This document shows positions 626 through 60,451 of a DNA stretch of 64,000 nt, one piece after another. The translations under genes and the position numbers were made by a program. Position 1 is the stretch's first letter, and every line of letters starts with the position of its first letter. Below the pieces are notes generated by a model, which worked only from the letters and a program-made list of their open reading frames with translations, searched no databases and was not told the DNA's origin. The stretch lies in NCBI GenBank assembly GCA_964615995.1, contig CAZTSR010000003.1, positions 64,327 through 128,326 of the forward strand. The letters run 5' to 3'. The DNA is from an uncultured Bacteroidales bacterium. Lineage in GTDB: Bacteria > Bacteroidota > Bacteroidia > Bacteroidales > UBA10428.

Positions 626-1048
626 TTATTTAAGCATTTTGTCTACAGTGGACTTAACAAGTTTATTCATTTCCTTAGGATTACCGATACCATAGGAAAA
701 TGCCTGTTCGGTTAGTTCAACGGTCTGACCTGAATTATCATTTTTTACGAATAACAGCTTATTCCAGGCAGCTTCATATTTTTCAGCTAAAGCCTTGTTC
801 TGACTTTCTTCAACATTGATTGATTCGAACTTAATAGTTCCATTGTCAAGCTGAGCTTTATATAAAGCGTTTAAAGCATTAACAGTGCCTTTTTCTGCAT
901 TAATACAACCCTGGCAACGGTGTGTGCCATGAAAGAAATAAACGAGAACTTTGGCATTCTTTGTTATTGATGACTTGCTGTTACTCTGCTGGGCGAATCC
1001 ATTACAACCCATGATTACGAATGCAAATGCAAGGATTAAGTTTTTCAT
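626..1048 (-). CDS. exported thioredoxin-fold protein with CxxC motif (resembles ArsF-family proteins of arsenical gene clusters)
   Basis: 140 aa. Signal/lipobox-like N-terminus MKNLILAFAFVIMGC. CQGC redox motif in FFHGTHRCQGC. Lies in an operon with CcdA-like and thioredoxin genes. The family name is from memory and was not searched. Confidence 0.6.
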   Translation of the reverse strand: MKNLILAFAFVIMGCNGFAQQSNSKSSITKNAKVLVYFFHGTHRCQGCINAEKGTVNALNALYKAQLDNGTIKFESINVEESQNKALAEKYEAAWNKLLFVKNDNSGQTVELTEQAFSYGIGNPKEMNKLVKSTVDKMLK

Positions 1049-1083
1049 AATATGAAATGTTTTGATTTAATTGTTGTTTTGTT

Positions 1084-1329
1084 TTATGCAGATGTATTTT
1101 TTGAAATAATTTCCTTTATCTCCTTAACCGAAGGCACACGGCCATACAATGCTACTTTTTCATCAATTACCAATGCAGGTGTTCTCATAATACCGTAGGA
1201 CATAATTTTTTGTATATCCTCCACTTTTTCAATCTGAGCATGAATACCCAACTCAGAAATAGCCAACTGCGTTGCTTTTTCAAGATTTTTGCAATTGGCA
1301 CAACCAGTTCCTAATACTTTTATTACCAT
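1084..1329 (-). CDS. small thioredoxin-family protein (redox-active disulfide protein 2 type)
   Basis: 81 aa. N-terminal MVIKVLGTGCANCKNL with a CxxC motif, typical of the small thioredoxin-like proteins found next to DUF318 permeases and ArsR. Confidence 0.8.
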   Translation of the reverse strand: MVIKVLGTGCANCKNLEKATQLAISELGIHAQIEKVEDIQKIMSYGIMRTPALVIDEKVALYGRVPSVKEIKEIISKNTSA

Positions 1330-1342
1330 GATTTAATAAATT

Positions 1343-2125
1343 TTATACAGGTTTTATTTTATTATAAATTGCTGTTAAATATTGGTCGTAATAACCATTA
1401 ATAGTTTCTTCTACTTCAGCCAAAGGGCGAACGGGAACAAGGTCAGCGACTTCTTCAAAAGTTAAACCGGATTTAAACAGTGTTTCAGTTGAACCTCCCA
1501 GCATTCCGGCAATTGCTGTTTGAGCTTCTTTTTCGTCCATACCAAAGGAAAGGGCAAGTTCCTTAAGTTTTTGAATCTGGAAAAAGAAATACGTATGTCC
1601 CATTGCGCTAATTACAGCATAAGCCTCAATCTTTTCTTCTTTTACTTCAGGAATAAAGCCCAGCGGTTTCAGAATATTTAAAATATTGGTTTTATCCTCC
1701 TGGTCCATTAATGGAGAAAAAGCAATAGGATTTACACCCTGATTGACAATGGCCGATGCGCTTGGATTCATTCTGGCTATGTTTTTAAAACCGTTTAAGG
1801 CAGCTTCCATTTTTTCAATGGTGATTTTAGGCGCCAGGGAAATGAGAACAGAATCTTTGGCAAGATTATCCTTAATTTTACCTAAGCTTTCCATTAAAAC
1901 AGGTGGATGTAAAGCAATAAAAACTATCTGCTTATTTGCTGTTTTTGCAATATCATCTGAAATGGTTGTAATCTCTGGAAATTTGGATTTAAGCGATTTT
2001 AGTACAGTTTCATCTGTATCAAATACAACCGAATCATTAATCTTAATATTGCTGTTTTTTAAGGCTTGCAATATGATGCGCGTTATGCGTCCGCCTCCTA
2101 TAAAGCCGAAAGAATATGTTTTCAT
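1343..2125 (-). CDS. NAD(P)-dependent oxidoreductase, pyrroline-5-carboxylate reductase-like
   Basis: 260 aa. N-terminal Rossmann motif FGFIGGGRITRIIL. ProC-like length and C-terminal helical region. Confidence 0.7.
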   Translation of the reverse strand: MKTYSFGFIGGGRITRIILQALKNSNIKINDSVVFDTDETVLKSLKSKFPEITTISDDIAKTANKQIVFIALHPPVLMESLGKIKDNLAKDSVLISLAPKITIEKMEAALNGFKNIARMNPSASAIVNQGVNPIAFSPLMDQEDKTNILNILKPLGFIPEVKEEKIEAYAVISAMGHTYFFFQIQKLKELALSFGMDEKEAQTAIAGMLGGSTETLFKSGLTFEEVADLVPVRPLAEVEETINGYYDQYLTAIYNKIKPV

Positions 2126-2160
2126 TTCTGAAAATTTATATGTTTAATAAAATATAACTG

Positions 2161-2481
2161 TTAGCAACCCTGGACTTTCTTTTCAAAGAACTCGATAAAG
2201 AGTCTTTTTGCATTTTCCCAATTCTCCTTATTGATGCAATACTTTACTTTAGGCGGTTCAATGCTTCCCTGAATAAGTCCTGATTCTTTCAATTCTTTTA
2301 AATGTTGTGAAACAGTTGCCTGAGCAATAGGCAATTCATTAAGAATATCGGTAAAACAGCAGTTACTCATGGAAGCAAGATGGTTCATAATTGCAACACG
2401 AGCAGGATGTCCTAACGCTTTTGCATACCTGGCAATTACCAACTCATCATTTTTGTAATCTGTACTAACCGGATGTGACAT
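2161..2481 (-). CDS. ArsR/SmtB-family metalloregulatory transcription factor
   Basis: 106 aa. wHTH core ARYAKALGHPARVAIMNHL...CCFTDILNELPIAQATVSQHLKELKESGLI, including the paired Cys typical of ArsR sensors. Confidence 0.85.
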   Translation of the reverse strand: MSHPVSTDYKNDELVIARYAKALGHPARVAIMNHLASMSNCCFTDILNELPIAQATVSQHLKELKESGLIQGSIEPPKVKYCINKENWENAKRLFIEFFEKKVQGC

Positions 2482-2522
2482 AATATTTGAATATTAATTT
2501 ATTACTGTTTAAAACGCGTCTT

Positions 2523-3560
2523 TTAAAAAATAAAATTGAACAGAAAGCCTACTATTATTATCCCAGTTGCTACAATACCAATAAAAGTGAGAATTAAAGG
2601 CATCCTTAGCACTTTGCGAAGTATAATCATTTCGGGTAATGATAAGCCTATTACAGACATCATAAAAGCCAATGCCGTACCCAAAGAAGCGCCCTTTTCA
2701 ATCAAAACGGAAACTATGGGTATTATCCCCGCAGCATTTGAATAAAGGGGTACCCCAATTAAAACCGATAACGGAACGGAATACCAGGCAGATTTACCCA
2801 TTATTGAAGCCATAAAAGATTCCGGTACATAGCCATGTGCGCCAGCGCCTACAGCTATACCCAAAGCAACATAAATCCAGACTTTGCTAACAATATCTTT
2901 TACAGCTACATATCCTAATTGTATGCGGCCCGCAAAACTTAGTTTTTCTTCAATGAGCGAATTGGAGCCCATTTGTGTTTTATATACCCAATCTTCTACC
3001 CATTTTTCTAATTTAAAGCGTCCAATAATCCAGCCTGATACAATTGCGATTGTTAATCCTGTAATCACATAAATAAGGGCTGTTTTCCATCCGAATAATC
3101 CCAAAAGCAGTATAACAGCAACCTCGTTTATCATAGGAGCTGCAATTAAGAATGAAAAAGTTACTCCTAAAGGCACGCCGGATTCGACAAATCCGAGAAA
3201 CAAAGGAATAGCAGAGCATGAGCAAAAAGGCGTTACTACGCCTAAAAGGCTTGCTAAAATATTACCTGTAAATTGCGATTTGCCTTCCAGAATTTTTCGG
3301 GTGCGTTCCGGCGAAAAATAAGAACGGATGATTCCTACAGCAAAAATGATTAAGGCTAATAACATAAGCACTTTCGGGAACTCAAACACAAAGAAACGAA
3401 TTGCCTCAGTCAGCTTGCTGCCTTTTGCCATTCCTGCTAAATCATAAATTAACCAATCTGTTAATGGTTGTAAAAAATGGTAGATTAAATACCATACAGG
3501 CAGTAATAGCAGGGGAATCAGAATTTTTCCAGTTGCGGTATTTAAAGAAACAGCCTTCAT
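2523..3560 (-). CDS. DUF318/ArsP_1-type permease
   Basis: Track ORF is 2523..3671. I prefer the start at MKAVSLNTATGKIL (ATG 3558-3560) because a TATATTTG -7 box lies 20-27 nt upstream. Polytopic membrane protein with a TPFCSCSAIPLF vicinal-Cys motif. Confidence 0.75.
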   Translation of the reverse strand: MKAVSLNTATGKILIPLLLLPVWYLIYHFLQPLTDWLIYDLAGMAKGSKLTEAIRFFVFEFPKVLMLLALIIFAVGIIRSYFSPERTRKILEGKSQFTGNILASLLGVVTPFCSCSAIPLFLGFVESGVPLGVTFSFLIAAPMINEVAVILLLGLFGWKTALIYVITGLTIAIVSGWIIGRFKLEKWVEDWVYKTQMGSNSLIEEKLSFAGRIQLGYVAVKDIVSKVWIYVALGIAVGAGAHGYVPESFMASIMGKSAWYSVPLSVLIGVPLYSNAAGIIPIVSVLIEKGASLGTALAFMMSVIGLSLPEMIILRKVLRMPLILTFIGIVATGIIIVGFLFNFIF

Positions 3561-3579
3561 ATATTTACATTGTTGTTCG

Positions 3580-3615
3580 CAAATATACGAATTGTGTTTC
3601 GTCAAATTACGAAAC
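3580..3615 (-). promoter_or_regulatory. candidate promoter (-7 box TATATTTG, 3580-3587 on minus) plus inverted-repeat operator GTTTCG-N8-CGAAAC (3596-3615)
   Basis: Exact match to the Bacteroidota TAnnTTTG -7 consensus upstream of the permease start. A perfect 6-bp-arm palindrome sits immediately upstream and is a plausible ArsR site. Confidence 0.45.
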
Positions 3616-3946
3616 AAAGTGAAAATTTTTAAAAAAAATATAAGTAAATAGTAATCAATTACAAAAACCACAAATTATCTTTCCCGAAGGGTGGTATTTC
3701 GTGCCCTTCGAAGTGAGGGAACATTTCGGCTGCTAATTCGGGATATTTGATTGTTATGGGTAAATTCCGTTAATGAACGGTGATTGGTAAGCGACAGCCT
3801 TTCAGGAATGAAAAAGATATCCCTATTTAAAAGCAGATTTCCTATGATGCTCTTTCACTGTGCAATATTGGTTGAAAAAAATACGAAACCAAAGATTCAA
3901 ATCAAAGACAAAAAATATAGCTTTAAAGTTTATAAAAATTCCGCCC

Positions 3947-6658
3947 ATGTTTTTATTTCCAGTTACTTTAAAAAAAGTCCAAAAATGGGCTTCCAAAGGT
4001 AAATATGATTTGTTAATTGAAGTCCTTGGTGACCCCAAGTGTAAAACTGACATAAAAATCGAAACCATTCATCTACTTGGCAAAAAGAAAGTAACAAAAG
4101 CCATTCCTGTTTTAACCGCCTTGATTCATGAGTTGCCTCTTAGAAAATCATTAATTGCCTGTTATGGAAATTTAAGGGACACCAGGATATATGATACGTT
4201 AATTAATCTGCTCCATCACGACAAAGAAAACATACCTGAAATTGTTCGTGATTTAGAGAATATCCATTATCCCGATGCAATACCCGTCCTGTTAAAGATG
4301 GTTGCCAGTGGTTCAGCAGATGATGCTATCCTTCATTCGATTAAGGTAATAGCCGACAAAAATGAAAGCTACGATGACATACTGAAAAGTTTCACTCCGG
4401 ATCAAACAGAATCCTGCTTAATTTTGCTTTGCAAAATATTGGCCGGTAATGATAAAAAAGAAATACAGACCAAACTCAATGCGTATATTTTTACAGAAAA
4501 TGCGCTGTTCAGGAAAGAAATAGGTCTTGCAAAAAAAACCAAAAAAGAAAATCAATGGGCTGACTGGCTGAAAGGTGATGCCGACGATTTCCGGCGACTG
4601 GCTGCTTCAGATGAGGAATATGTTTATGATATGCTCATGGATCAATATGAAAAAGGCCATAAAATTTTGGATCCATATCAGGATGTTTTTGCAAACCATA
4701 TTATAAGGATGGCTGATGCTGCATTCAGAGAAAGAGCGCTTTGTTTTATTGAAAAGCATAAGCTGGTTAGGGCGGCTGCAGAACTGGTGAATCATATCAG
4801 TAATTATGATGGCCAAATTCGGTTGAGAATAGCTAAAACACTGTCTGCTTTAGATATTCATGATTATAACGACGTGATAAAAGGAGATACACAGGATTTT
4901 ATACGTTTATTCGATCATAATCCCAGGGAAGGCGGAAATTTACTTAAGGAAATGGTGACGCACACATTTCCGCTTACCAAGGAAGAGCTGCAAATCTTAG
5001 CTGAAATTATTTCCGATTTAGGGAAGTCAAATAAACCAGAAGCTGTTGATGTTTTAGTTGCCGGTGTCAATGAAACATCATCAATAGGAGAAAAATGCTT
5101 TGACGCTATTCAGCAAGCCGGCAATGAAAGATTTGATGCAATTCTTTCCGGTATGTTGATCTCTTATAAAGACAAAACACGGATAAAAGCAGCAAAAAAG
5201 CTTGATCAGTTAGGAGATCATCGATGGGTGGATATTGTAAAGGGTGATGACAATGATATTGAACGCCTCTGTCTAGCTGGTTGTAAAGCTGCAATCGACA
5301 AAGAAATTATTTGCCTTGGAATGGACAGATATATTCGCGAAAAAGCAGCCCATATATTGTTGAAGGTATTGAAGAACAATCCCCAGGATGTTCTGAACTG
5401 GTCAGATATCGGGAAATCGATAACAACGCCTCATAAGGATGTACATGAAGACAATCATTCAGATCATGAAAGGACATCGGATTGCCATAGTGATAACGAA
5501 GGCCGTTCCATACATGAGGATTTGGGTTTTAACCTGACTTTTAATAATGAACAGCTTAAGTTTTTCAATGAGGTCGATTACGCTGACAGACGCAAGAAGA
5601 ATACCATTTCTGAAGAATATCTCATCGAGATGTTTGAGTCAAATCAGGATTCTTTAAGAGAGGATATGTTTGAAGATGCCAGACAGTTCTCCTCGGAAAA
5701 GCTGATTGAAGTAATAGGCAGGCTGGTTGAAAAAGAGGGTAAATATTCAAAAAAAGCATTTGAATATCTTTTGCTGCATAAGGTTGCCGCTTTACCGTAT
5801 TTTATAAAATCATTGTTATCCTATAGAGATGAAGACATCATCAGGGAAATTATTGCTGCCGGAGCACAGTCTTATAAGCTTCTTATTGATTTGTTATCTG
5901 AAAGCAAAAAAGTTCAATATGTAATTGAAGTGTTGGGGTTACTTGGCAATAAGCAGGCCATTGATCATATATTTCCTTATTTAACTTTCCGCGATGATAA
6001 AGCAGTCAGAATGAGTTCTGCAGGTGCTATGATCCATCTGGGTGAAACAGATTGGAAAGATATAATATTTGGAGATGATGATGATTTTGAGCGACTTGTA
6101 TTGAAGTGCGATGTCAGGTTGCTGAGTTGGTATAAAACCTCTTTTGTTGACATTCAATTTAGTTATCTTAAGGTACTTCTTGCCAAAACTTTAGCCCGGT
6201 TGGGTGAGAAGGAATTAGCAGGAGAAGTCAGAGAGCTGTTGATATCACCAAATCATAACGTTACAGATGTTGCCGGGGCCCTGGCCATGATTGACAGTAC
6301 CGACTGGAGTAAAGTAATCCTGGGCAACGAATCGGATTTTAAACGAATTGCCGGGGTTTGTAATATAGATGCTGTTAAAGTTTTGCTTGTCTTTTTAAAA
6401 GCCGCTGAAAGGGGAACCAGGGCAGCTGCAGCAGAAAGTCTGATCTCTATCGCAAAAGTCAATTTTTCTGTTGTTCAGGATGAATGGAAATCTATAACAG
6501 CCACTATCGCTCAGAAACACGAGGACAGCAGCAAACATGTGAGTCACTGGGCCGAAACACGATCGGGTGATTGTCATTCCGATTATATTTCACATACAGA
6601 TACCGGACTGGGTTTGACAATCTCAGATGATTTAGATTTGCGGGCTGATGACAAATAA
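3947..6658 (+). CDS. large HEAT (PBS-lyase-like) repeat protein, internally duplicated, each half ending in a His/Asp/Cys-rich DCHSD module
   Basis: Track ORF is 3860..6658 (932 aa). The ATG at 3947 (MFLFPVTLKK) is preferred because the first 29 codons are low-complexity and promoter-like. HEAT-like repeats are present (KAIPVLTALIHELP, DAIPVLLKMV, LGNKQAIDHIFPYL). The ORF overlaps the downstream rSAM gene by 11 nt. Confidence 0.8.
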   Translation: MFLFPVTLKKVQKWASKGKYDLLIEVLGDPKCKTDIKIETIHLLGKKKVTKAIPVLTALIHELPLRKSLIACYGNLRDTRIYDTLINLLHHDKENIPEIVRDLENIHYPDAIPVLLKMVASGSADDAILHSIKVIADKNESYDDILKSFTPDQTESCLILLCKILAGNDKKEIQTKLNAYIFTENALFRKEIGLAKKTKKENQWADWLKGDADDFRRLAASDEEYVYDMLMDQYEKGHKILDPYQDVFANHIIRMADAAFRERALCFIEKHKLVRAAAELVNHISNYDGQIRLRIAKTLSALDIHDYNDVIKGDTQDFIRLFDHNPREGGNLLKEMVTHTFPLTKEELQILAEIISDLGKSNKPEAVDVLVAGVNETSSIGEKCFDAIQQAGNERFDAILSGMLISYKDKTRIKAAKKLDQLGDHRWVDIVKGDDNDIERLCLAGCKAAIDKEIICLGMDRYIREKAAHILLKVLKNNPQDVLNWSDIGKSITTPHKDVHEDNHSDHERTSDCHSDNEGRSIHEDLGFNLTFNNEQLKFFNEVDYADRRKKNTISEEYLIEMFESNQDSLREDMFEDARQFSSEKLIEVIGRLVEKEGKYSKKAFEYLLLHKVAALPYFIKSLLSYRDEDIIREIIAAGAQSYKLLIDLLSESKKVQYVIEVLGLLGNKQAIDHIFPYLTFRDDKAVRMSSAGAMIHLGETDWKDIIFGDDDDFERLVLKCDVRLLSWYKTSFVDIQFSYLKVLLAKTLARLGEKELAGEVRELLISPNHNVTDVAGALAMIDSTDWSKVILGNESDFKRIAGVCNIDAVKVLLVFLKAAERGTRAAAAESLISIAKVNFSVVQDEWKSITATIAQKHEDSSKHVSHWAETRSGDCHSDYISHTDTGLGLTISDDLDLRADDK

Positions 6659-9011
6659 CCTGATTTCCTGTTCGGCCCGTATTCATAGTAATCCTCATTT
6701 TATGGTGATTCCCAGTAATGCATGCAATGCTTCATGCCATTATTGCTTTGGACCCAACAAAGGAAGAATTATCAATGAAGAGCAATTCAGTGAAAATATC
6801 AGTTTTATTGAAAAGGTCGTTCAAACTACACAACAAACCAAGGTACACATAACATTCCATGGAGGTGAGCCGCTGATGGCTCCGCTGAATATTTGGAAGA
6901 GCGGATTAAAATTAATCGACCGGACTTTCAAAACCCAAAAGCTTAAGCTTCAAATCCAGAGTAATTTATGGAACCTAACCCAGGAACATTGTGCTTTATT
7001 CAGAGATTACGGTATTTCATTCAGCACCAGTCTGGATGGACCTGAGGAAATAAATGATCTACATCGTGGGAAGGGCTATTTTTCCAAAACGATGAACGGT
7101 GTTGATCTTTTGCGGAAAAACAATATGAAGGTCGGGTCAATTGCCACTTTCTCTCCAAAAAACATGGACAAGATAAATGAAATCTTTACTTTTTTCGTCA
7201 GACAAAGGCTTTCATTTGCTGTACATGCTTCATTGCCACCGCTTACCGGTAAGGCAAATTCTTTTGTTTTGAGCCCTCAACAATATGGAACATTGTTATG
7301 TGACCTGTTCGATTTGTATGTGCCCAACCGCAAGTATATCAGTATTTCATCCTTTGATCAGCTTTGCCAATCAATCACGGATAACAGGGGCAAAGTATGC
7401 ACATTCAAGGACTGTACAGGCTCTTTTCTGGCCATTGATCCGGAAGGAAATATATATCCCTGTCAGCGGTTTTCAGGGAACCCTGATTATTGCCTTGGAA
7501 ATGTAATTGATCCGGAGATAATCAGCCGCTTACAGAATAACCCTGTTACCAACAGCCTGGTTGCTCATCATAAACAAATAAAAATTGAATGTAAGGATTG
7601 CGATCATATGAACTATTGTAAGGGTGGGTGTTATTATAACAGCAAAGCATCAAAGGAAACCAAAGACCCTTATTGCGAATCGTATAAAATGATTTTTAAC
7701 AAAATCAGGAATAGGCTGATCGGAGAGATGAGTAGTCCTGATAATTTCCGGGAAATTGTGGATAAACCTTTTACCAGCAATGGGAATCCGCTGCTTCGGA
7801 AAGGTCCTGTTATTGAACTTACGCAAAAGCCGCATCCGGTGACAAAAGCGATCAATTCGGCAAAAATTATTTCAGTTGTTGCCTTATCGCGATCAGCTAC
7901 AATAGACGAGGCCCATCAATCATTGAAAGACCTGGGCATTGGCGTTGAAAAGTCATACCTTGAAAATCTGAAAGAGCAGTTCAGCAGGAACCATTTCAAA
8001 TTAAATAACTGTTACATTCATACGACCTTTAATTGTCAGTTAGCATGCACGCATTGCTATGCAAAAGCCGGAAATTCTTCCGGCGAATCCATGCGTATTT
8101 CCCAGATAGCTGACATTTTAATGCAGGTGAAGGAAAACAAATTCAGACAGGCCATAATTACCGGTGGTGAACCGCTGATCTGCGACAATCTGGATGGTTT
8201 TCTGAACCGGATGATTGAACTTCGCCTGCAAATTGAGCCTGTAATTATTGTGCTTAGGACGAATTTATCCATGCCATTGTCAGACGGATTACTAGCTAAA
8301 ATAGCCCGGGCATTTCATCAGATTGTTGTAAGTGTTGACGGAGACAAAGAATATCATGAAAAGCGGAGAGGAGAAGGAACATACTCCAAAGTAACTGAAA
8401 ACATTCAAAGATATCAGCAGGTTATTCAAAATGTAAATAAGCCTGCTGAGTTATCAATAGGTTGTGTAATGCCTGCTGATGACATTCATGGGGGACCAGG
8501 TCAGAGTGTCCGTGATTTTGCTTATGCCAAAAACATAAGAAGAGTGAGGTTTAAACCACTTTTGCCGATAGGGAGAGCTGCTGACACATACACTTCCCTG
8601 GTTTCTGAGGCTCTGGATAGTTATGTTGACAAGGAAGAAGCCTTAAAGTATCCGTTTAAGCCATTTAAAACCTGTGGTATTGGTTATAATGTATACATAG
8701 AGCCAAAAGGCCATGTTTTTCCCTGTTATGCGTTTCACAAACCTCATACCTATATTGGCAATGTATTTGAATCGGGCTTGAACGGGATAGTGATGAGCGA
8801 GGCATTCAGGACTTTATCCGAACATAATGTGGATACCAACTCAAAGTGCAAAAAATGCGGATTTCGCTATTTATGCGGAGGCGCATGCCGTGCCTGGGGC
8901 CGGAATTTTACGCAGTATGATCTGGATGCACCGCCTCCCGATTGTGAAGGTCTGTATAAAAAGGCCGAAGATATCTATACGGCTGCGCTGGACTATCTGA
9001 AGAGCAGGTAG
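6648..9011 (+). CDS. fused tandem radical SAM/SPASM-domain enzyme (two complete maturase modules)
   Basis: 787 aa. Module 1 has CNASCHYC (6723-6746) and SPASM motif CKDCDHMNYCKGGC (7590-7631). Module 2 has CQLACTHC (8034-8057) and SPASM motif CKKCGFRYLCGGAC (8847-8888). GGEPL motifs occur in both modules. Confidence 0.9.
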   Translation: MTNNLISCSARIHSNPHFMVIPSNACNASCHYCFGPNKGRIINEEQFSENISFIEKVVQTTQQTKVHITFHGGEPLMAPLNIWKSGLKLIDRTFKTQKLKLQIQSNLWNLTQEHCALFRDYGISFSTSLDGPEEINDLHRGKGYFSKTMNGVDLLRKNNMKVGSIATFSPKNMDKINEIFTFFVRQRLSFAVHASLPPLTGKANSFVLSPQQYGTLLCDLFDLYVPNRKYISISSFDQLCQSITDNRGKVCTFKDCTGSFLAIDPEGNIYPCQRFSGNPDYCLGNVIDPEIISRLQNNPVTNSLVAHHKQIKIECKDCDHMNYCKGGCYYNSKASKETKDPYCESYKMIFNKIRNRLIGEMSSPDNFREIVDKPFTSNGNPLLRKGPVIELTQKPHPVTKAINSAKIISVVALSRSATIDEAHQSLKDLGIGVEKSYLENLKEQFSRNHFKLNNCYIHTTFNCQLACTHCYAKAGNSSGESMRISQIADILMQVKENKFRQAIITGGEPLICDNLDGFLNRMIELRLQIEPVIIVLRTNLSMPLSDGLLAKIARAFHQIVVSVDGDKEYHEKRRGEGTYSKVTENIQRYQQVIQNVNKPAELSIGCVMPADDIHGGPGQSVRDFAYAKNIRRVRFKPLLPIGRAADTYTSLVSEALDSYVDKEEALKYPFKPFKTCGIGYNVYIEPKGHVFPCYAFHKPHTYIGNVFESGLNGIVMSEAFRTLSEHNVDTNSKCKKCGFRYLCGGACRAWGRNFTQYDLDAPPPDCEGLYKKAEDIYTAALDYLKSR

Positions 9012-57686: not shown

Positions 57687-59006
57687 CTACAGAATGGTAG
57701 CGAACAGGTCGAACTCAGCAGCATCTGTAACCTGAACCCGGTAAAAATCTCCAATTTTTACATGGGGTGTACTCACGGGAATCAGAATTTCATTGTCTAT
57801 TTCAGGTGAATCAGACTCTGAACGGGCGGTGTAAAAATCTCCTTCCTTACCATCAACTATAACTTTAATTATTTTACCTATCTTATTATCATTCAATTTT
57901 TTTGATATGTTTTGCTGCAATTCCATCAGCATGTCAGCGCGCTCCTTTTTGATGCGTTCTGCAAGGGTATCTTTATAATTTTTCGCGGCGTACGTATCAT
58001 CTTCCTCAGAATAAGTAAACACCCCCAGCCTGTCGAACTGTATTTCCGTTACGAACCTTCGTAATTCGTCAAATTCTTTTTTTGTCTCCCCCGGATGGCC
58101 TGTAATTAAGGTGGTACGTAATGTAATATCAGGAATTTGAGTACGTATGTAATTAATCAGATCATAGTTCTGCTGACGGTTGTGCCCTCGTTTCATCAGT
58201 CTCAATACTACATCGCTGCTGTGTTGAAAAGGAATATCCAGGTACTTGCAGATGTTATCTCTTTCTTTCATAATCCGGATGACCTTTTTGGGAAAGCCGG
58301 CCGGATAAGCATAATGCAGGCGAATCCATTCAATGCCTTTCACATCAGACAGTTGTTCCAGTAATTCAGGTAAAGCCCGCCTGCCATATAAGTCTGTACC
58401 ATAACGGGTAATATCCTGAGCAATTACTATGATCTCCTTAACACCCTGTAAAACCAGATTTTTGGCTTCCTGAACCAGTGATTCCAACGGCCGGGAAACA
58501 TGTTTGCCCCTGATCAAAGGAATGGCACAAAAAGAACATCTCCTGTCGCATCCTTCAGATATTTTCAGGTAAGCATAATGAGATGGGGTTGTAACCAGGC
58601 GGTCACTCACCAGATCCTTTTTATAATCTAAATGTAAATGTTTAATAACCGACTCTAAGTCGTTTACTCCAAAATACTTATCAACATCCGGGATTTCATT
58701 TTCCAATTCTTTTTTATAACGCTGCGACAGGCAGCCCATAACCAGAACATGGTTAATGGAGCCCTTTTTGCGGGCATTGATGGCCTCAAGAATGGTGTTA
58801 ATGGATTCCTGCTTGGCATCCTTTATAAAGCCACAGGTATTGATAACCACAATCCGGGCCTGTTCTCCTCTTTCATCTTCGCTATGAATTACCCGGATGT
58901 CATTGGCCTGAAGTTGCCTTAAAAGCACTTCAGAATCCACGCGATTTTTAGAACATCCTAAAGTAATGACCTTAATATAGGTGCTTTTATCAGATCGTAC
59001 CTTCAT
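57687..59006 (-). CDS. rimO: ribosomal protein S12 methylthiotransferase RimO
   Basis: 439 aa. MTTase N-domain VITLGCSKN, radical-SAM motif GCDRRCSFCAIP, and a C-terminal TRAM domain. Confidence 0.9.
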   Translation of the reverse strand: MKVRSDKSTYIKVITLGCSKNRVDSEVLLRQLQANDIRVIHSEDERGEQARIVVINTCGFIKDAKQESINTILEAINARKKGSINHVLVMGCLSQRYKKELENEIPDVDKYFGVNDLESVIKHLHLDYKKDLVSDRLVTTPSHYAYLKISEGCDRRCSFCAIPLIRGKHVSRPLESLVQEAKNLVLQGVKEIIVIAQDITRYGTDLYGRRALPELLEQLSDVKGIEWIRLHYAYPAGFPKKVIRIMKERDNICKYLDIPFQHSSDVVLRLMKRGHNRQQNYDLINYIRTQIPDITLRTTLITGHPGETKKEFDELRRFVTEIQFDRLGVFTYSEEDDTYAAKNYKDTLAERIKKERADMLMELQQNISKKLNDNKIGKIIKVIVDGKEGDFYTARSESDSPEIDNEILIPVSTPHVKIGDFYRVQVTDAAEFDLFATIL

Positions 59007-60451
59007 TTTTTGGCCAGCCTGCTTTTCCTAATACCATAAGTAAAATAAATCACCAGTCCTATTATCATCCATATAATCAGTCGCTCCCAGGTTTCCCAGG
59101 GCAAACTCATCATCTGCATCAGGCAAATAACTGCACCGATAATGGGTATAAATGGCACCAGAGGAGTTTTAAAGGGTCGATGTATGTCAGGACGTTTTTT
59201 TCTGAGTACAATAATGCTGATGCAAACAATTGTAAATGCCAGAAGGGTTCCGATGGATACCAGTTCACTCAGTATATTAATGGGCAGAATTCCAGCTACA
59301 AAGCAAGCGACAGCACCTGTAACAATGGTGGTTACATAAGGCGTGCGAAACCGCGGATGCACTTTTGAAAAGCTTTTTGGCAAGAGGCCGTCATTGGCCA
59401 TAGTAAAAAAGATTCTCGGCTGTCCCATTAACATCACCAGTATCACTGAGCTTAATCCGGCGATAGCGCCAATTTTAATCATTGGCCTGAGCCACAGTAA
59501 TGCATCACCTGTTTTATCAATGGCTAAAGCCAGAGGTGCCGGAACATTCAATTCTGTATAGTGAACTATACCTGTCAGCACTCCGGCGACCAAAACATAT
59601 AAAATTGTACAAACAAAAAGTGAGCCTAATATTCCAATGGGCATATCGCGTTGTGGATTTTTGGCTTCCTGGGCAGCGGTAGAAACAGCATCAAAACCAA
59701 TATAGGCAAAGAAAATAACCGCAGCTCCACGCAATACTCCGGTAAATCCGAAATTTCCAAACTCACCTGTAGGATTGGGCGGAATAAAAGGTTTCCAATT
59801 GGAAGTATCAATGAATGACAGTCCAAAACCGATAAAGAGCAATATAACAATAACTTTTACGGCCACTATCAGGTTATTAAATCTTGCTGATTCACGGATG
59901 CCAATAACTAACAGTGTTGACATCAGGGCAATGATAAACACTGCAGGAAAATTCACAATGCTTCCTGTTAATATCCATCCTTCCCCTTTAATGTAATCAA
60001 TGGGGGCGCTGCAAAGCTGAGCCGGGATGTTCAAACCATAATCTCCGAGAAAACTCACCATATATCCCGACCATCCGACAGCAACTGTAGAAGAAGCAAA
60101 AAGGTATTCAAGTATGAGATCCCATCCAATAATCCATGCAATAAACTCGCCCAGGGTAGCATAGGAATATGTATACGCACTGCCTGAAATAGGGATCATG
60201 GATGCGAATTCAGCATAACAGAGGCCTGCAAAAACGCATCCCAAGGCCGATATAATAAATGATAATACCAGTGCAGGTCCTGCATAATTTGCAGCTACAG
60301 TGCCGGTAAGAACGAAAATTCCCGTTCCTATTATAGCACCGATTCCCAGTGTAACCAGACTGGTTCCGCTAAGTGCCCGCCTGAGTCCGTGTTCTTTATC
60401 ACCAGCCTCCAGGAGAAGCTGGTCAACCGGCTTGGTTCGGAATATATGCAT
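59003..60451 (-). CDS. APC-family amino acid permease
   Basis: 482 aa. LRRALSGTSLVTLGIGAIIGTGIF is typical of the APC family. Its stop overlaps the rimO start by 4 nt. Confidence 0.9.
   Translation of the reverse strand: MHIFRTKPVDQLLLEAGDKEHGLRRALSGTSLVTLGIGAIIGTGIFVLTGTVAANYAGPALVLSFIISALGCVFAGLCYAEFASMIPISGSAYTYSYATLGEFIAWIIGWDLILEYLFASSTVAVGWSGYMVSFLGDYGLNIPAQLCSAPIDYIKGEGWILTGSIVNFPAVFIIALMSTLLVIGIRESARFNNLIVAVKVIVILLFIGFGLSFIDTSNWKPFIPPNPTGEFGNFGFTGVLRGAAVIFFAYIGFDAVSTAAQEAKNPQRDMPIGILGSLFVCTILYVLVAGVLTGIVHYTELNVPAPLALAIDKTGDALLWLRPMIKIGAIAGLSSVILVMLMGQPRIFFTMANDGLLPKSFSKVHPRFRTPYVTTIVTGAVACFVAGILPINILSELVSIGTLLAFTIVCISIIVLRKKRPDIHRPFKTPLVPFIPIIGAVICLMQMMSLPWETWERLIIWMIIGLVIYFTYGIRKSRLAKK

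Follow-up and report, generated by a model that had tools for sequence, protein, structure and literature searches.

A HEAT-repeat protein with two His/Asp/Cys modules overlaps a double radical SAM gene

The window analysed here, a stretch of 64,000 nucleotides from an uncultured Bacteroidales bacterium (contig CAZTSR010000003.1), contains a gene for a HEAT-repeat protein whose end overlaps by 11 nt (6648-6658) the start of a gene for a fused double radical S-adenosylmethionine (SAM)/SPASM enzyme (Table 1). The HEAT-repeat protein displays two short modules rich in His, Asp and Cys, and these modules and their relation to the enzyme are the subject of this work. An initial annotation of the sequence had described two such segments, with a DCHSD in each, within one open reading frame (ORF). 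Both the letters and the coordinates were confirmed, since the enclosing ORF in the ORF list (3860..6658, + strand) carries the two segments as quoted. The first codon of this ORF is a GTG at position 3860, while the conserved start is the ATG at 3947; as all five orthologues begin with MFLFP, this ATG was taken as the true start and the first 29 codons of the frame (3860-3946) are probably untranslated.

The product of 3947..6658 is a member of the HEAT-repeat family, with a score of 67.5 bits for Pfam HEAT_2 (gathering cutoff 27.7), 27.6 bits for HEAT_PBS (cutoff 20.9) and an alpha-solenoid architecture. HEAT_2 and PBS-lyase-type HEAT repeats are the only features recognised by Pfam or NCBIfam models, none of which covers the His/Asp/Cys segments, and a sequence search of solved structures returned no match for the HEAT protein. 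BLASTP aligns one half of the protein with the other over the whole length (E=5e-9, 22% identity), and the modules fall at matching positions where the halves close. In the AlphaFold2 (AF2) model the protein consists of helical solenoids with paired helices throughout and a mean predicted local distance difference test (pLDDT) score of 75.8. The solenoids are confident, and pLDDT drops below 50 only at aa 486-534 and aa 860-903, which correspond to the two modules, and in short loops. The modules are thus predicted to be disordered and would fit flexible, peptide-like segments, although the depth of the AF2 alignment, which was 4 sequences, weakens this point.

Besides the modules, a second repeat is present in five copies within the HEAT body (4553-4600, 4862-4909, 5222-5269, 6050-6097 and 6302-6349), with the pattern W/Y-x-D-[IV]-[IV]-x-G-[DN]-x-x-D-F-x-R-[LI], as in DWKDIIFGDDDDFERL. 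It is seen across the wider family as GEPxWxxxVKGDDxDFxRLGxSGD, and the copy at aa 426-441 falls inside the most conserved stretch of the protein.

Table 1. Features of the HEAT-repeat gene and of the adjoining enzyme gene (positions of the window)
Feature	Position	Strand	Description
HEAT-repeat protein gene	3947..6658	+	903 aa; two homologous solenoid halves, each closed by a His/Asp/Cys module
Module 1	5384..5557	+	Internal, linker between the solenoids: NWSDIGKSITTPHKDVHEDNHSDHERTSDCHSDNEGRSIHEDLGFNLTF; matches the module HMM
HxD triplets of module 1 (n=5)	5432-5440, 5444-5452, 5456-5464, 5486-5494, 5513-5521	+	
DCHSD of module 1	5480..5494	+	Middle 'SDC-HxD' element
Module 2	6473..6655	+	C-terminal tail: EWKSITATIAQKHEDSSKHVSHWAETRSGDCHSDYISHTDTGLGLTISDDLDLRADDK; matches the module HMM
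HxD triplets of module 2	6518-6526, 6575-6583, 6593-6601	+	
DCHSD of module 2	6569..6583	+	
Fused double radical SAM/SPASM enzyme gene	6648..9011	+	787 aa; Pfam Radical_SAM x2, SPASM x2, Fer4_12 x2
Radical SAM/SPASM domain 1	6696..7736	+	aa 17-363; TIGR04083 family
CX3CX2C of domain 1	6723-6746	+	CNASCHYC, aa 26-33
Radical SAM/SPASM domain 2	7953..9008	+	aa 436-787; orphan among SPASM peptide maturases
CX3CX2C of domain 2	8034-8057	+	CQLACTHC, aa 463-470

The two modules are related to each other and conserved

Local alignment of the two segments, each of about 57 aa, gave a score of 72, when compared to 27.0 +/- 5.3 for composition-preserving shuffles (n=5000), which corresponds to z=8.4 with 0/5000 shuffles reaching the score; for the 38-aa cores alone z was 5.7 and the score was reached by 2/5000 shuffles. 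The relatedness of the segments, which had been proposed from an alignment by eye, is therefore retained. An Asp is found two residues after the His for five of the six His in module 1 (0/20000 shuffles) and for three of the five in module 2 (P=0.006), with HxD triplets in tandem in module 1 (e.g. HKDVHEDNHSD), and each module has one Cys with a C-x2-D spacing. The shuffling statistics, together with the position-specific conservation described below, rule out chance or low complexity as the origin of the modules.

Conservation was measured on P0001, P0003 and P0004, which diverge most among the four orthologues aligned and are 43-51% identical to the window protein. Invariant columns make up 55-60% of the modules versus 29% elsewhere, in agreement with the earlier claim that the modules are under selection and have diverged less than the HEAT body; however, one HEAT segment, aa 412-445, exceeds them with 67% invariant columns. 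W, H-x-D, H, D-C-H-x-D and H-x-D-x-G are invariant in all eight modules of the four aligned proteins. DCHSD, which had been called invariant, is not strictly so, as two orthologues read DCHCD in module 1, and it is the form D-C-H-x-D that is kept in all orthologues. Conservation of the Cys extends to 10/10 orthologous modules but not to the whole of the wider family.

The enzyme joins two dissimilar radical SAM/SPASM domains

The adjacent gene product is a member of the radical SAM/SPASM superfamily, in which both the CX3CX2C motif and the Cys-rich SPASM region are found, each of them twice and the latter with its complete set of Cys in either domain. TIGR04083 matches aa 17-363 over profile positions 1-349 of 376 with 373.4 bits (cutoff 300), followed for the whole enzyme by DynA (262 bits), anSME (238 bits) and PapB (182 bits). 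Domain 2 alone has StsB (88 bits), DynA (74 bits), PapB (73 bits) and MftC (66 bits) as its best NCBIfam matches, all far under cutoff. Every NCBIfam neighbour of both domains is a peptide- or protein-modifying maturase. With only 20% identity between domains 1 and 2, the enzyme is an ancient fusion of distinct enzymes rather than the product of a recent duplication; the seven SPASM Cys of domain 2 are invariant in the six relatives compared. The nearest solved structure to domain 1 is anSME 4K36 (96 bits, full-length alignment), followed by CteB and the cyclophane synthase ChlB. As in anSME, domain 1 begins directly at CX3CX2C, which leaves no space for a leader-recognition domain at the N terminus.

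The linker between the two radical SAM units (7734-7950, aa 363-435) is well conserved (NPLLRKGPVIELTQKPHP...). It contains LGIGVE, which resembles the GIGVEFP of the candidate substrates described below and could mark a recognition domain or be a coincidence.

The modules belong to a wide family of C-terminal tails

An exhaustive HMMER search with the orthologue alignment retrieved thousands of HEAT proteins. A profile hidden Markov model (HMM) of the module detected it in about 45 of 153 proteins, mostly top matches of that search, and nearly always at the very C terminus. The general layout has W..I...I as the last helix and, after it, a disordered tail of the form PHxD - [SSDC-HxD] - HxDxGIGLxFP. 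The iterated profile, built on 139 modules of which 112 are unique, reads W(0.67)..I...I..P-H(0.89)-x-D(0.86) in its first part, S-S-D(0.62)-C(0.71) ... H(0.71)-x-D(0.74) in the middle and H(0.96)-x-D(0.99)-x-G(0.97)-I-G(0.88)-L-x-F-P(0.80) in the last. The last HxDxGIGLxFP and the first PHxD are thus the most conserved elements across the family, with HxD...HxDxGIG as the universal core. All three HxD sites of the profile have a constant His and Asp around a variable middle residue, and no Ser position is conserved across the family.

The DCHSD of the window is therefore the local form of the middle 'SDC-HxD' element. The Cys of this element is present in 98/112 unique modules and missing from whole clades that keep both the tail and a TIGR04083 enzyme. 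The carriers range from 115 aa, with one HEAT helix pair and the tail, to about 1000 aa, some of them being short (115-213 aa), and in many clades the protein stops directly after GIG[VL][DE]FP.

In many relatives a zinc-ribbon-like CPxCG...CPxC segment follows the module and a linker (P0023, P0026, P0041, P0046-P0048, P0056 and P0075; L014 6660-8339; L017 7271-9727), and very many family members end in ...DF-COOH. Two module-only stop-to-stop frames without a start codon (L006 304-435 and L009 633-803) look like decayed remnants of tail genes.

A search of a 5.8-billion-protein index with the full-length HEAT protein returned only four close relatives, the wider family having come from the HMMER search. 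Module-only profile searches of the same index gave almost nothing, which is uninformative on family size, since this word index is unsuited to short variable queries.

Tail-bearing HEAT genes and the enzyme gene are linked

The pair of HEAT and radical SAM genes is kept in four distinct orthologous loci with differing flanks, namely the window, L001, L003/L004 (counted as one locus, since P0003 is the gene in both) and L005. Five more module-bearing proteins, picked from the matches of the HMMER search (P0030, P0015, P0007, P0070 and P0019), cluster with a double radical SAM enzyme that is 42-47% identical, the enzyme gene being adjacent or in a short same-strand cluster, and upstream in the case of P0015. 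Starting from the module, the enzyme is therefore linked in 9/9 informative cases, while three more lie on contigs too short to tell.

The converse search started from the enzyme. When genome contigs were scanned with the enzyme sequence alone, just one close relative was retrieved, in an uncultured Bacteroidetes metagenome-assembled genome, and a metagenome scan seeded by the enzyme alignment only gave more than 500 relatives, from which 80 loci were kept. A same-strand tail-bearing ORF was detected by HMM or regular expression in 47/80 of these loci, and the count rises to 55/80 when divergent tails judged by eye are included; 21 of the 25 tail-less loci have less than 1.5 kb of flank on the side of the HEAT gene. 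Linkage to radical SAM genes, which the initial annotation had put forward as a test, is thus seen from both sides. Several loci have more than one tail gene per enzyme gene, with four in L092, three in L093 and two or three each in L011, L013, L019, L034 and L049. When ORFs were clustered over 85 loci, only the radical SAM and HEAT genes recurred widely, and no conserved protease, exporter, tailoring enzyme or general third component was found.

Literature searches for TIGR04083 with HEAT proteins, for HEAT or PBS lyase with radical SAM and for tandem or double radical SAM enzymes returned nothing relevant. The HEAT-tail/TIGR04083 system is widespread, uncharacterised and apparently undescribed.

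Three other genes were seen near the pair in subsets of loci. A gene for an AAA_28-type P-loop NTPase of about 200 aa, absent from the window, lies just after the tail-bearing HEAT genes in 13/85 loci (e.g. L047 9457-10092 and L093 7835-8422) and may encode an accessory component. In L010, from a distant cluster, a 756-aa protein with an FGE-sulfatase domain (326-2596) is encoded directly upstream of the double radical SAM gene. In one clade (L055, L056, L059, L061, L066 and L071) the ORF just upstream of the enzyme gene codes for a membrane protein that is conserved and about 220 aa long (…LRLYLPGVVQLIASVCL…WWIILPLAVGLLLL…), the L056 copy being more divergent.

The Cys element follows the second radical SAM domain

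The tail Cys is present in 31/32 loci in which the enzyme has two CX3CX2C motifs. In contrast, single-domain enzymes, which score 346-417 bits with TIGR04083 when found beside tail-bearing HEAT genes, are accompanied by tails that lack both the Cys and the middle HxD in 8/8 counted loci, or 10/10 when L083 and L084 are added; examples of these minimal tails are EVH[NR]DEFPYGSHEDSGIGVEFP and HSDTAGGGRHSDVGVGIEFP. The association between Cys and domain 2 has a Fisher p of ~8e-7, uncorrected for phylogeny, and the single-domain enzymes fall into two separate clades. L068, an apparent counter-example to this pairing, proved to be a frameshifted double enzyme. As the Cys tracks enzyme architecture, domain 1 would serve the universal HxD / HxDxGIG sites and domain 2 the Cys element.

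The twin-module protein as a probable lineage-specific fusion

A reading of the twin layout as a special two-site design was abandoned. In other loci the same modules are carried by separate genes that lie side by side, and the window protein has two homologous halves; it is best explained as a head-to-tail fusion of two substrate-type genes in this Bacteroidota lineage. After the fusion, module 1 would have become the linker between the solenoids while module 2 stayed C-terminal. P0018 (L009 3500-5710) is an independent two-module protein, in which the internal module is followed by a sequence like the typical N terminus of the family, and P0032 has an internal module at aa 231-284. Fusion of substrate genes has therefore occurred more than once.

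The modules as probable substrate segments of the radical SAM enzyme

Altogether, these data lead us to propose, with a probability of roughly 70%, that both modules are substrate segments of the adjoining radical SAM enzyme. The system would have two components, one or several tail-bearing HEAT proteins and a TIGR04083-family radical SAM/SPASM enzyme, most lineages having a second radical SAM/SPASM domain fused to it. The targets of domain 1 would be the universal HxD / HxDxGIG sites, where it would most probably make a three-residue side-chain cross-link between the imidazole of His and the beta-carbon of Asp. Domain 2 would connect the sulfur of the Cys with a carbon of some residue close by, probably the Asp beta-carbon in the adjoining C-H-x-D. 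The product would stay on the HEAT scaffold as a rigid, cross-linked loop rich in His and Asp, possibly forming a metal or ligand site, and retention on the protein is suggested by the lack of a conserved protease or exporter in the ORF clusters together with the internal position of module 1. The specific cross-links are a good deal more doubtful than the substrate role as such, and we put them forward tentatively. Equally tentative is the complete picture, in which the HEAT proteins are the missing substrates of TIGR04083, receive a novel HxD cross-link, plus a Cys thioether in the case of two-domain enzymes, and so display a rigid metal or ligand site on a solenoid.

The suggestion made initially, that the modules are precursors of a crosslink or cofactor, thus survives as the best reading, by way of the tight linkage to radical SAM/SPASM genes, whereas the weight it placed on the Cys and on DCHSD does not, as these are not the heart of the module and are missing in whole clades. 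For the Cys, a thioether like that of QhpC is a reasonable guess, since the Cys element co-varies with domain 2, although the membership scores are weak. The other option raised at that time, a plain metal site, explains the evidence less well than the substrate role.

Several observations weigh against the substrate role. The reaction is wholly inferred, and no family with a characterised function has its cutoff reached by either radical SAM domain. anSME, the nearest relative of domain 1 with a solved structure, oxidises Cys or Ser and does not cross-link, and SPASM maturases do not usually act on substrates as large as 200-1000 aa. Four loci (L036, L057, L078 and L089) have an adequate flank and no tail gene, while L026 combines a double-domain enzyme with a Cys-less tail. 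Besides, the test of co-variation between Cys and domain 2 ignores shared ancestry, the four-sequence alignment may partly cause the low AF2 confidence in the modules, and simple metal binding would also conserve a tail rich in His, Asp and Cys.

Three other explanations were considered. In the first, the tail would serve as a precursor, undergoing modification before it is cleaved to give a small cofactor or a secreted peptide, as for pyrroloquinoline quinone (PQQ), mycofactocin or a classical ribosomally made peptide with post-translational modifications (RiPP), the HEAT solenoid being an oversized leader. Such a precursor would account for the extreme C-terminal location of the tail, for the many proteins that stop right after GIGVxFP, for carriers as small as those of 115-213 aa and for the several precursor genes per enzyme, and domain 2 weakly resembles MftC. 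However, cleavage is difficult to reconcile with the 366 residues that follow the internal module 1, with the zinc-ribbon extension found after the module in many relatives and with HEAT bodies that are long and conserved, and the 85 loci provided no conserved protease, exporter or tailoring enzyme to process or release a product. We regard this possibility as unlikely.

Slightly less likely still is that the modules are unmodified metal-binding tails, and the HEAT protein a metallochaperone, a storage protein or an accessory factor that works with the radical SAM enzyme, for instance in the delivery of Fe-S clusters or metals. The composition in His, Asp and Cys, the regular spacing of HxD and the predicted flexibility of the tail would suit such a role, as would the metalloregulator/efflux-type operon upstream in the window and a CusB/CzcB-like RND pump upstream in L003's relative, but these metal-related neighbours are not conserved and the flanks vary among orthologues. 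Up to four tail genes per enzyme gene are better suited to substrates than to a chaperone, the most conserved stretch of the tail, GIGLxFP, has no liganding side chains, and the Cys element follows the presence of a second catalytic domain of an enzyme whose relatives are all peptide or protein maturases.

Finally, it is very improbable that domain 1 acts in the manner of anSME, oxidising a Cys or Ser in the module so that the protein would carry the aldehyde formylglycine and no cross-link: anSME is indeed the nearest solved structure (96 bits) and the third-best NCBIfam match (238 bits), domain 1 likewise starts at CX3CX2C with no space for leader recognition and an FGE-sulfatase-domain gene lies upstream in L010, but the anSME score is under its cutoff of 349, both modules are without a C/S-x-P/A-x-R motif, no Ser is conserved family-wide, and the Cys tracks domain 2 instead of the anSME-like domain 1 and is missing from single-domain systems.

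Radical SAM/SPASM enzymes make many unusual cross-links in peptides and protein cofactors, and many of their families, including TIGR04083, are without a known substrate. The locus and its relatives supply a concrete and testable pair, in the form of an HxD...(Cys)...HxDxGIGLxFP tail on HEAT proteins together with TIGR04083, and the naturally occurring differences in domain number (one or two) and in the presence of the Cys predict a division of labour between the domains. If the substrate role is true, radical SAM maturation would extend to large solenoid proteins, with possibly a new His/Asp cross-link and a new class of radical SAM-matured proteins, as opposed to peptides, and it would give a function to the very common "HEAT repeat domain-containing protein" annotations in environmental bacteria.

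Surroundings of the pair in the window

The neighbours of the HEAT/radical SAM pair in the window are ars-like genes and genes for a MATE transporter and a PadR regulator. The ars-like genes form a divergent detoxification cluster (626-3671, - strand), which encodes an ArsR/SmtB regulator, a SaoE/SO_0444-like permease, a ProC-like reductase, an MTH895/ArsE thioredoxin-like protein and an ArsF-family protein, and which is not conserved beside the pair in orthologues. The metal-related neighbours (ArsR and the permease in the window, the RND pump in L003's relative) were rejected as functional context, since the flanks are not conserved. An unrelated 446-aa ORF at 57690-59027 (- strand) has one CX3CX2C (CDRRCSFC) and probably encodes a radical SAM enzyme with a housekeeping role. 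Searches for RNA families and tRNAs gave no match in the 64-kb window.

Comparison with known systems

The family whose cutoff is cleared by the enzyme, through domain 1, is TIGR04083, an NCBIfam 'hypothetical equivalog' described as a 'peptide-modifying radical SAM enzyme' with no assigned reaction. The window enzyme departs from the single-domain architecture of about 376 aa expected for this family, as it has 787 aa and a second, dissimilar radical SAM/SPASM domain, whereas single-domain members are found in related loci.

Among described systems the nearest in concept is HXS, which is antiphage and includes HxsA, a protein with His-Xaa-Ser repeats that is matured by the radical SAM pair HxsB/HxsC plus HxsD, the modification being located at the His-containing repeat (PMC13128918). 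The window resembles it in having a protein carrier with repeated His-x-small/acidic triplets and two radical SAM/SPASM catalytic units, but the motif is HxD and not HxS, the carrier is a cytoplasmic-looking HEAT solenoid without a peptidoglycan-binding domain and the radical SAM units are fused. Membership was rejected, as the HxsB model gives 136.6 bits (cutoff 370), the 25 NCBIfam matches listed do not include HxsC and the HEAT protein is matched by no HxsA or HxsD model; the genes around the pair also bear names other than HxsD. A reading as a defence system was rejected as well, PADLOC having returned no defence-system match for either protein and only a weak hit to HEAT-ARM for the HEAT protein and generic viperin-like radical SAM hits for the enzyme.

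SPASM enzymes that form three-residue cyclophanes (triceptides) link an aromatic residue to the beta-carbon two residues on, leaving the middle residue free and often acting on tandem motifs (PMC11499958). Links from His-C2 to C-beta have been established on the HAA (HaaB), HNR (YhhB) and HTK (HtkB) motifs (PMC11499958). The modules are similar in their tandem, enriched and position-conserved HxD with a variable middle residue, and the enzyme in that DynA is its second-best NCBIfam match and ChlB is among the matches in the PDB. DynA, the best characterised relative of domain 1, reportedly forms a His-N to C-beta link on an H-x-Y motif. On the other hand, HxD is not a described motif, the candidate substrates are large proteins and a cross-link is proposed here by analogy. 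Membership in the cyclophane-synthase families was rejected on scores below cutoff (YhhB 158/445, GrrM/OscB 122/310, AmcB 122/425, FxsB 108/370 and DynA 262/450 bits).

The single Cys near Asp in D-C-H-S-D, and the co-occurrence of the Cys element with an extra radical SAM/SPASM domain, recall QhpC/QhpD and PapB. Cys-to-Asp/Glu thioethers are formed in the QhpC/QhpD system, in which QhpC is a protein substrate too, and in ranthipeptides (PapB), with a typical spacing of C-x3-D in PapA. The modules differ from PapA in their C-x2-D spacing and in a Cys that is dispensable in part of the tail family. QhpD membership was rejected, with 133 bits for the whole enzyme against a cutoff of 453, the match mapping to domain 1, 56 bits for domain 2 alone and no QHNDH subunit genes nearby. 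The same holds for the ranthipeptide (PapB) and sactipeptide families, where PapB reaches 182/340 with the whole enzyme, over the domain 1 stretch, and 73 with domain 2 alone, while StsB reaches 88/625 with domain 2.

The likeness to anSME lies in its being the closest solved structure, in its action on full-size proteins and in the lack of a leader-recognition domain; membership was rejected on a score of 237.7 against 349.45, with no sulfatase motif in the modules and no adjacent sulfatase gene. The mycofactocin system was rejected likewise, as MftC scores 101.9 against 265 and the tails end in GIGLxFP or in other residues and not in the Val-Tyr of the MftA type. Taken together, the sequence comparisons place the HEAT-tail system in none of the triceptide, QhpD, PapB, anSME and MftC families, all of whose models stay below cutoff; it would work like them, a TIGR04083-type enzyme being paired with the conserved tail of a HEAT protein.

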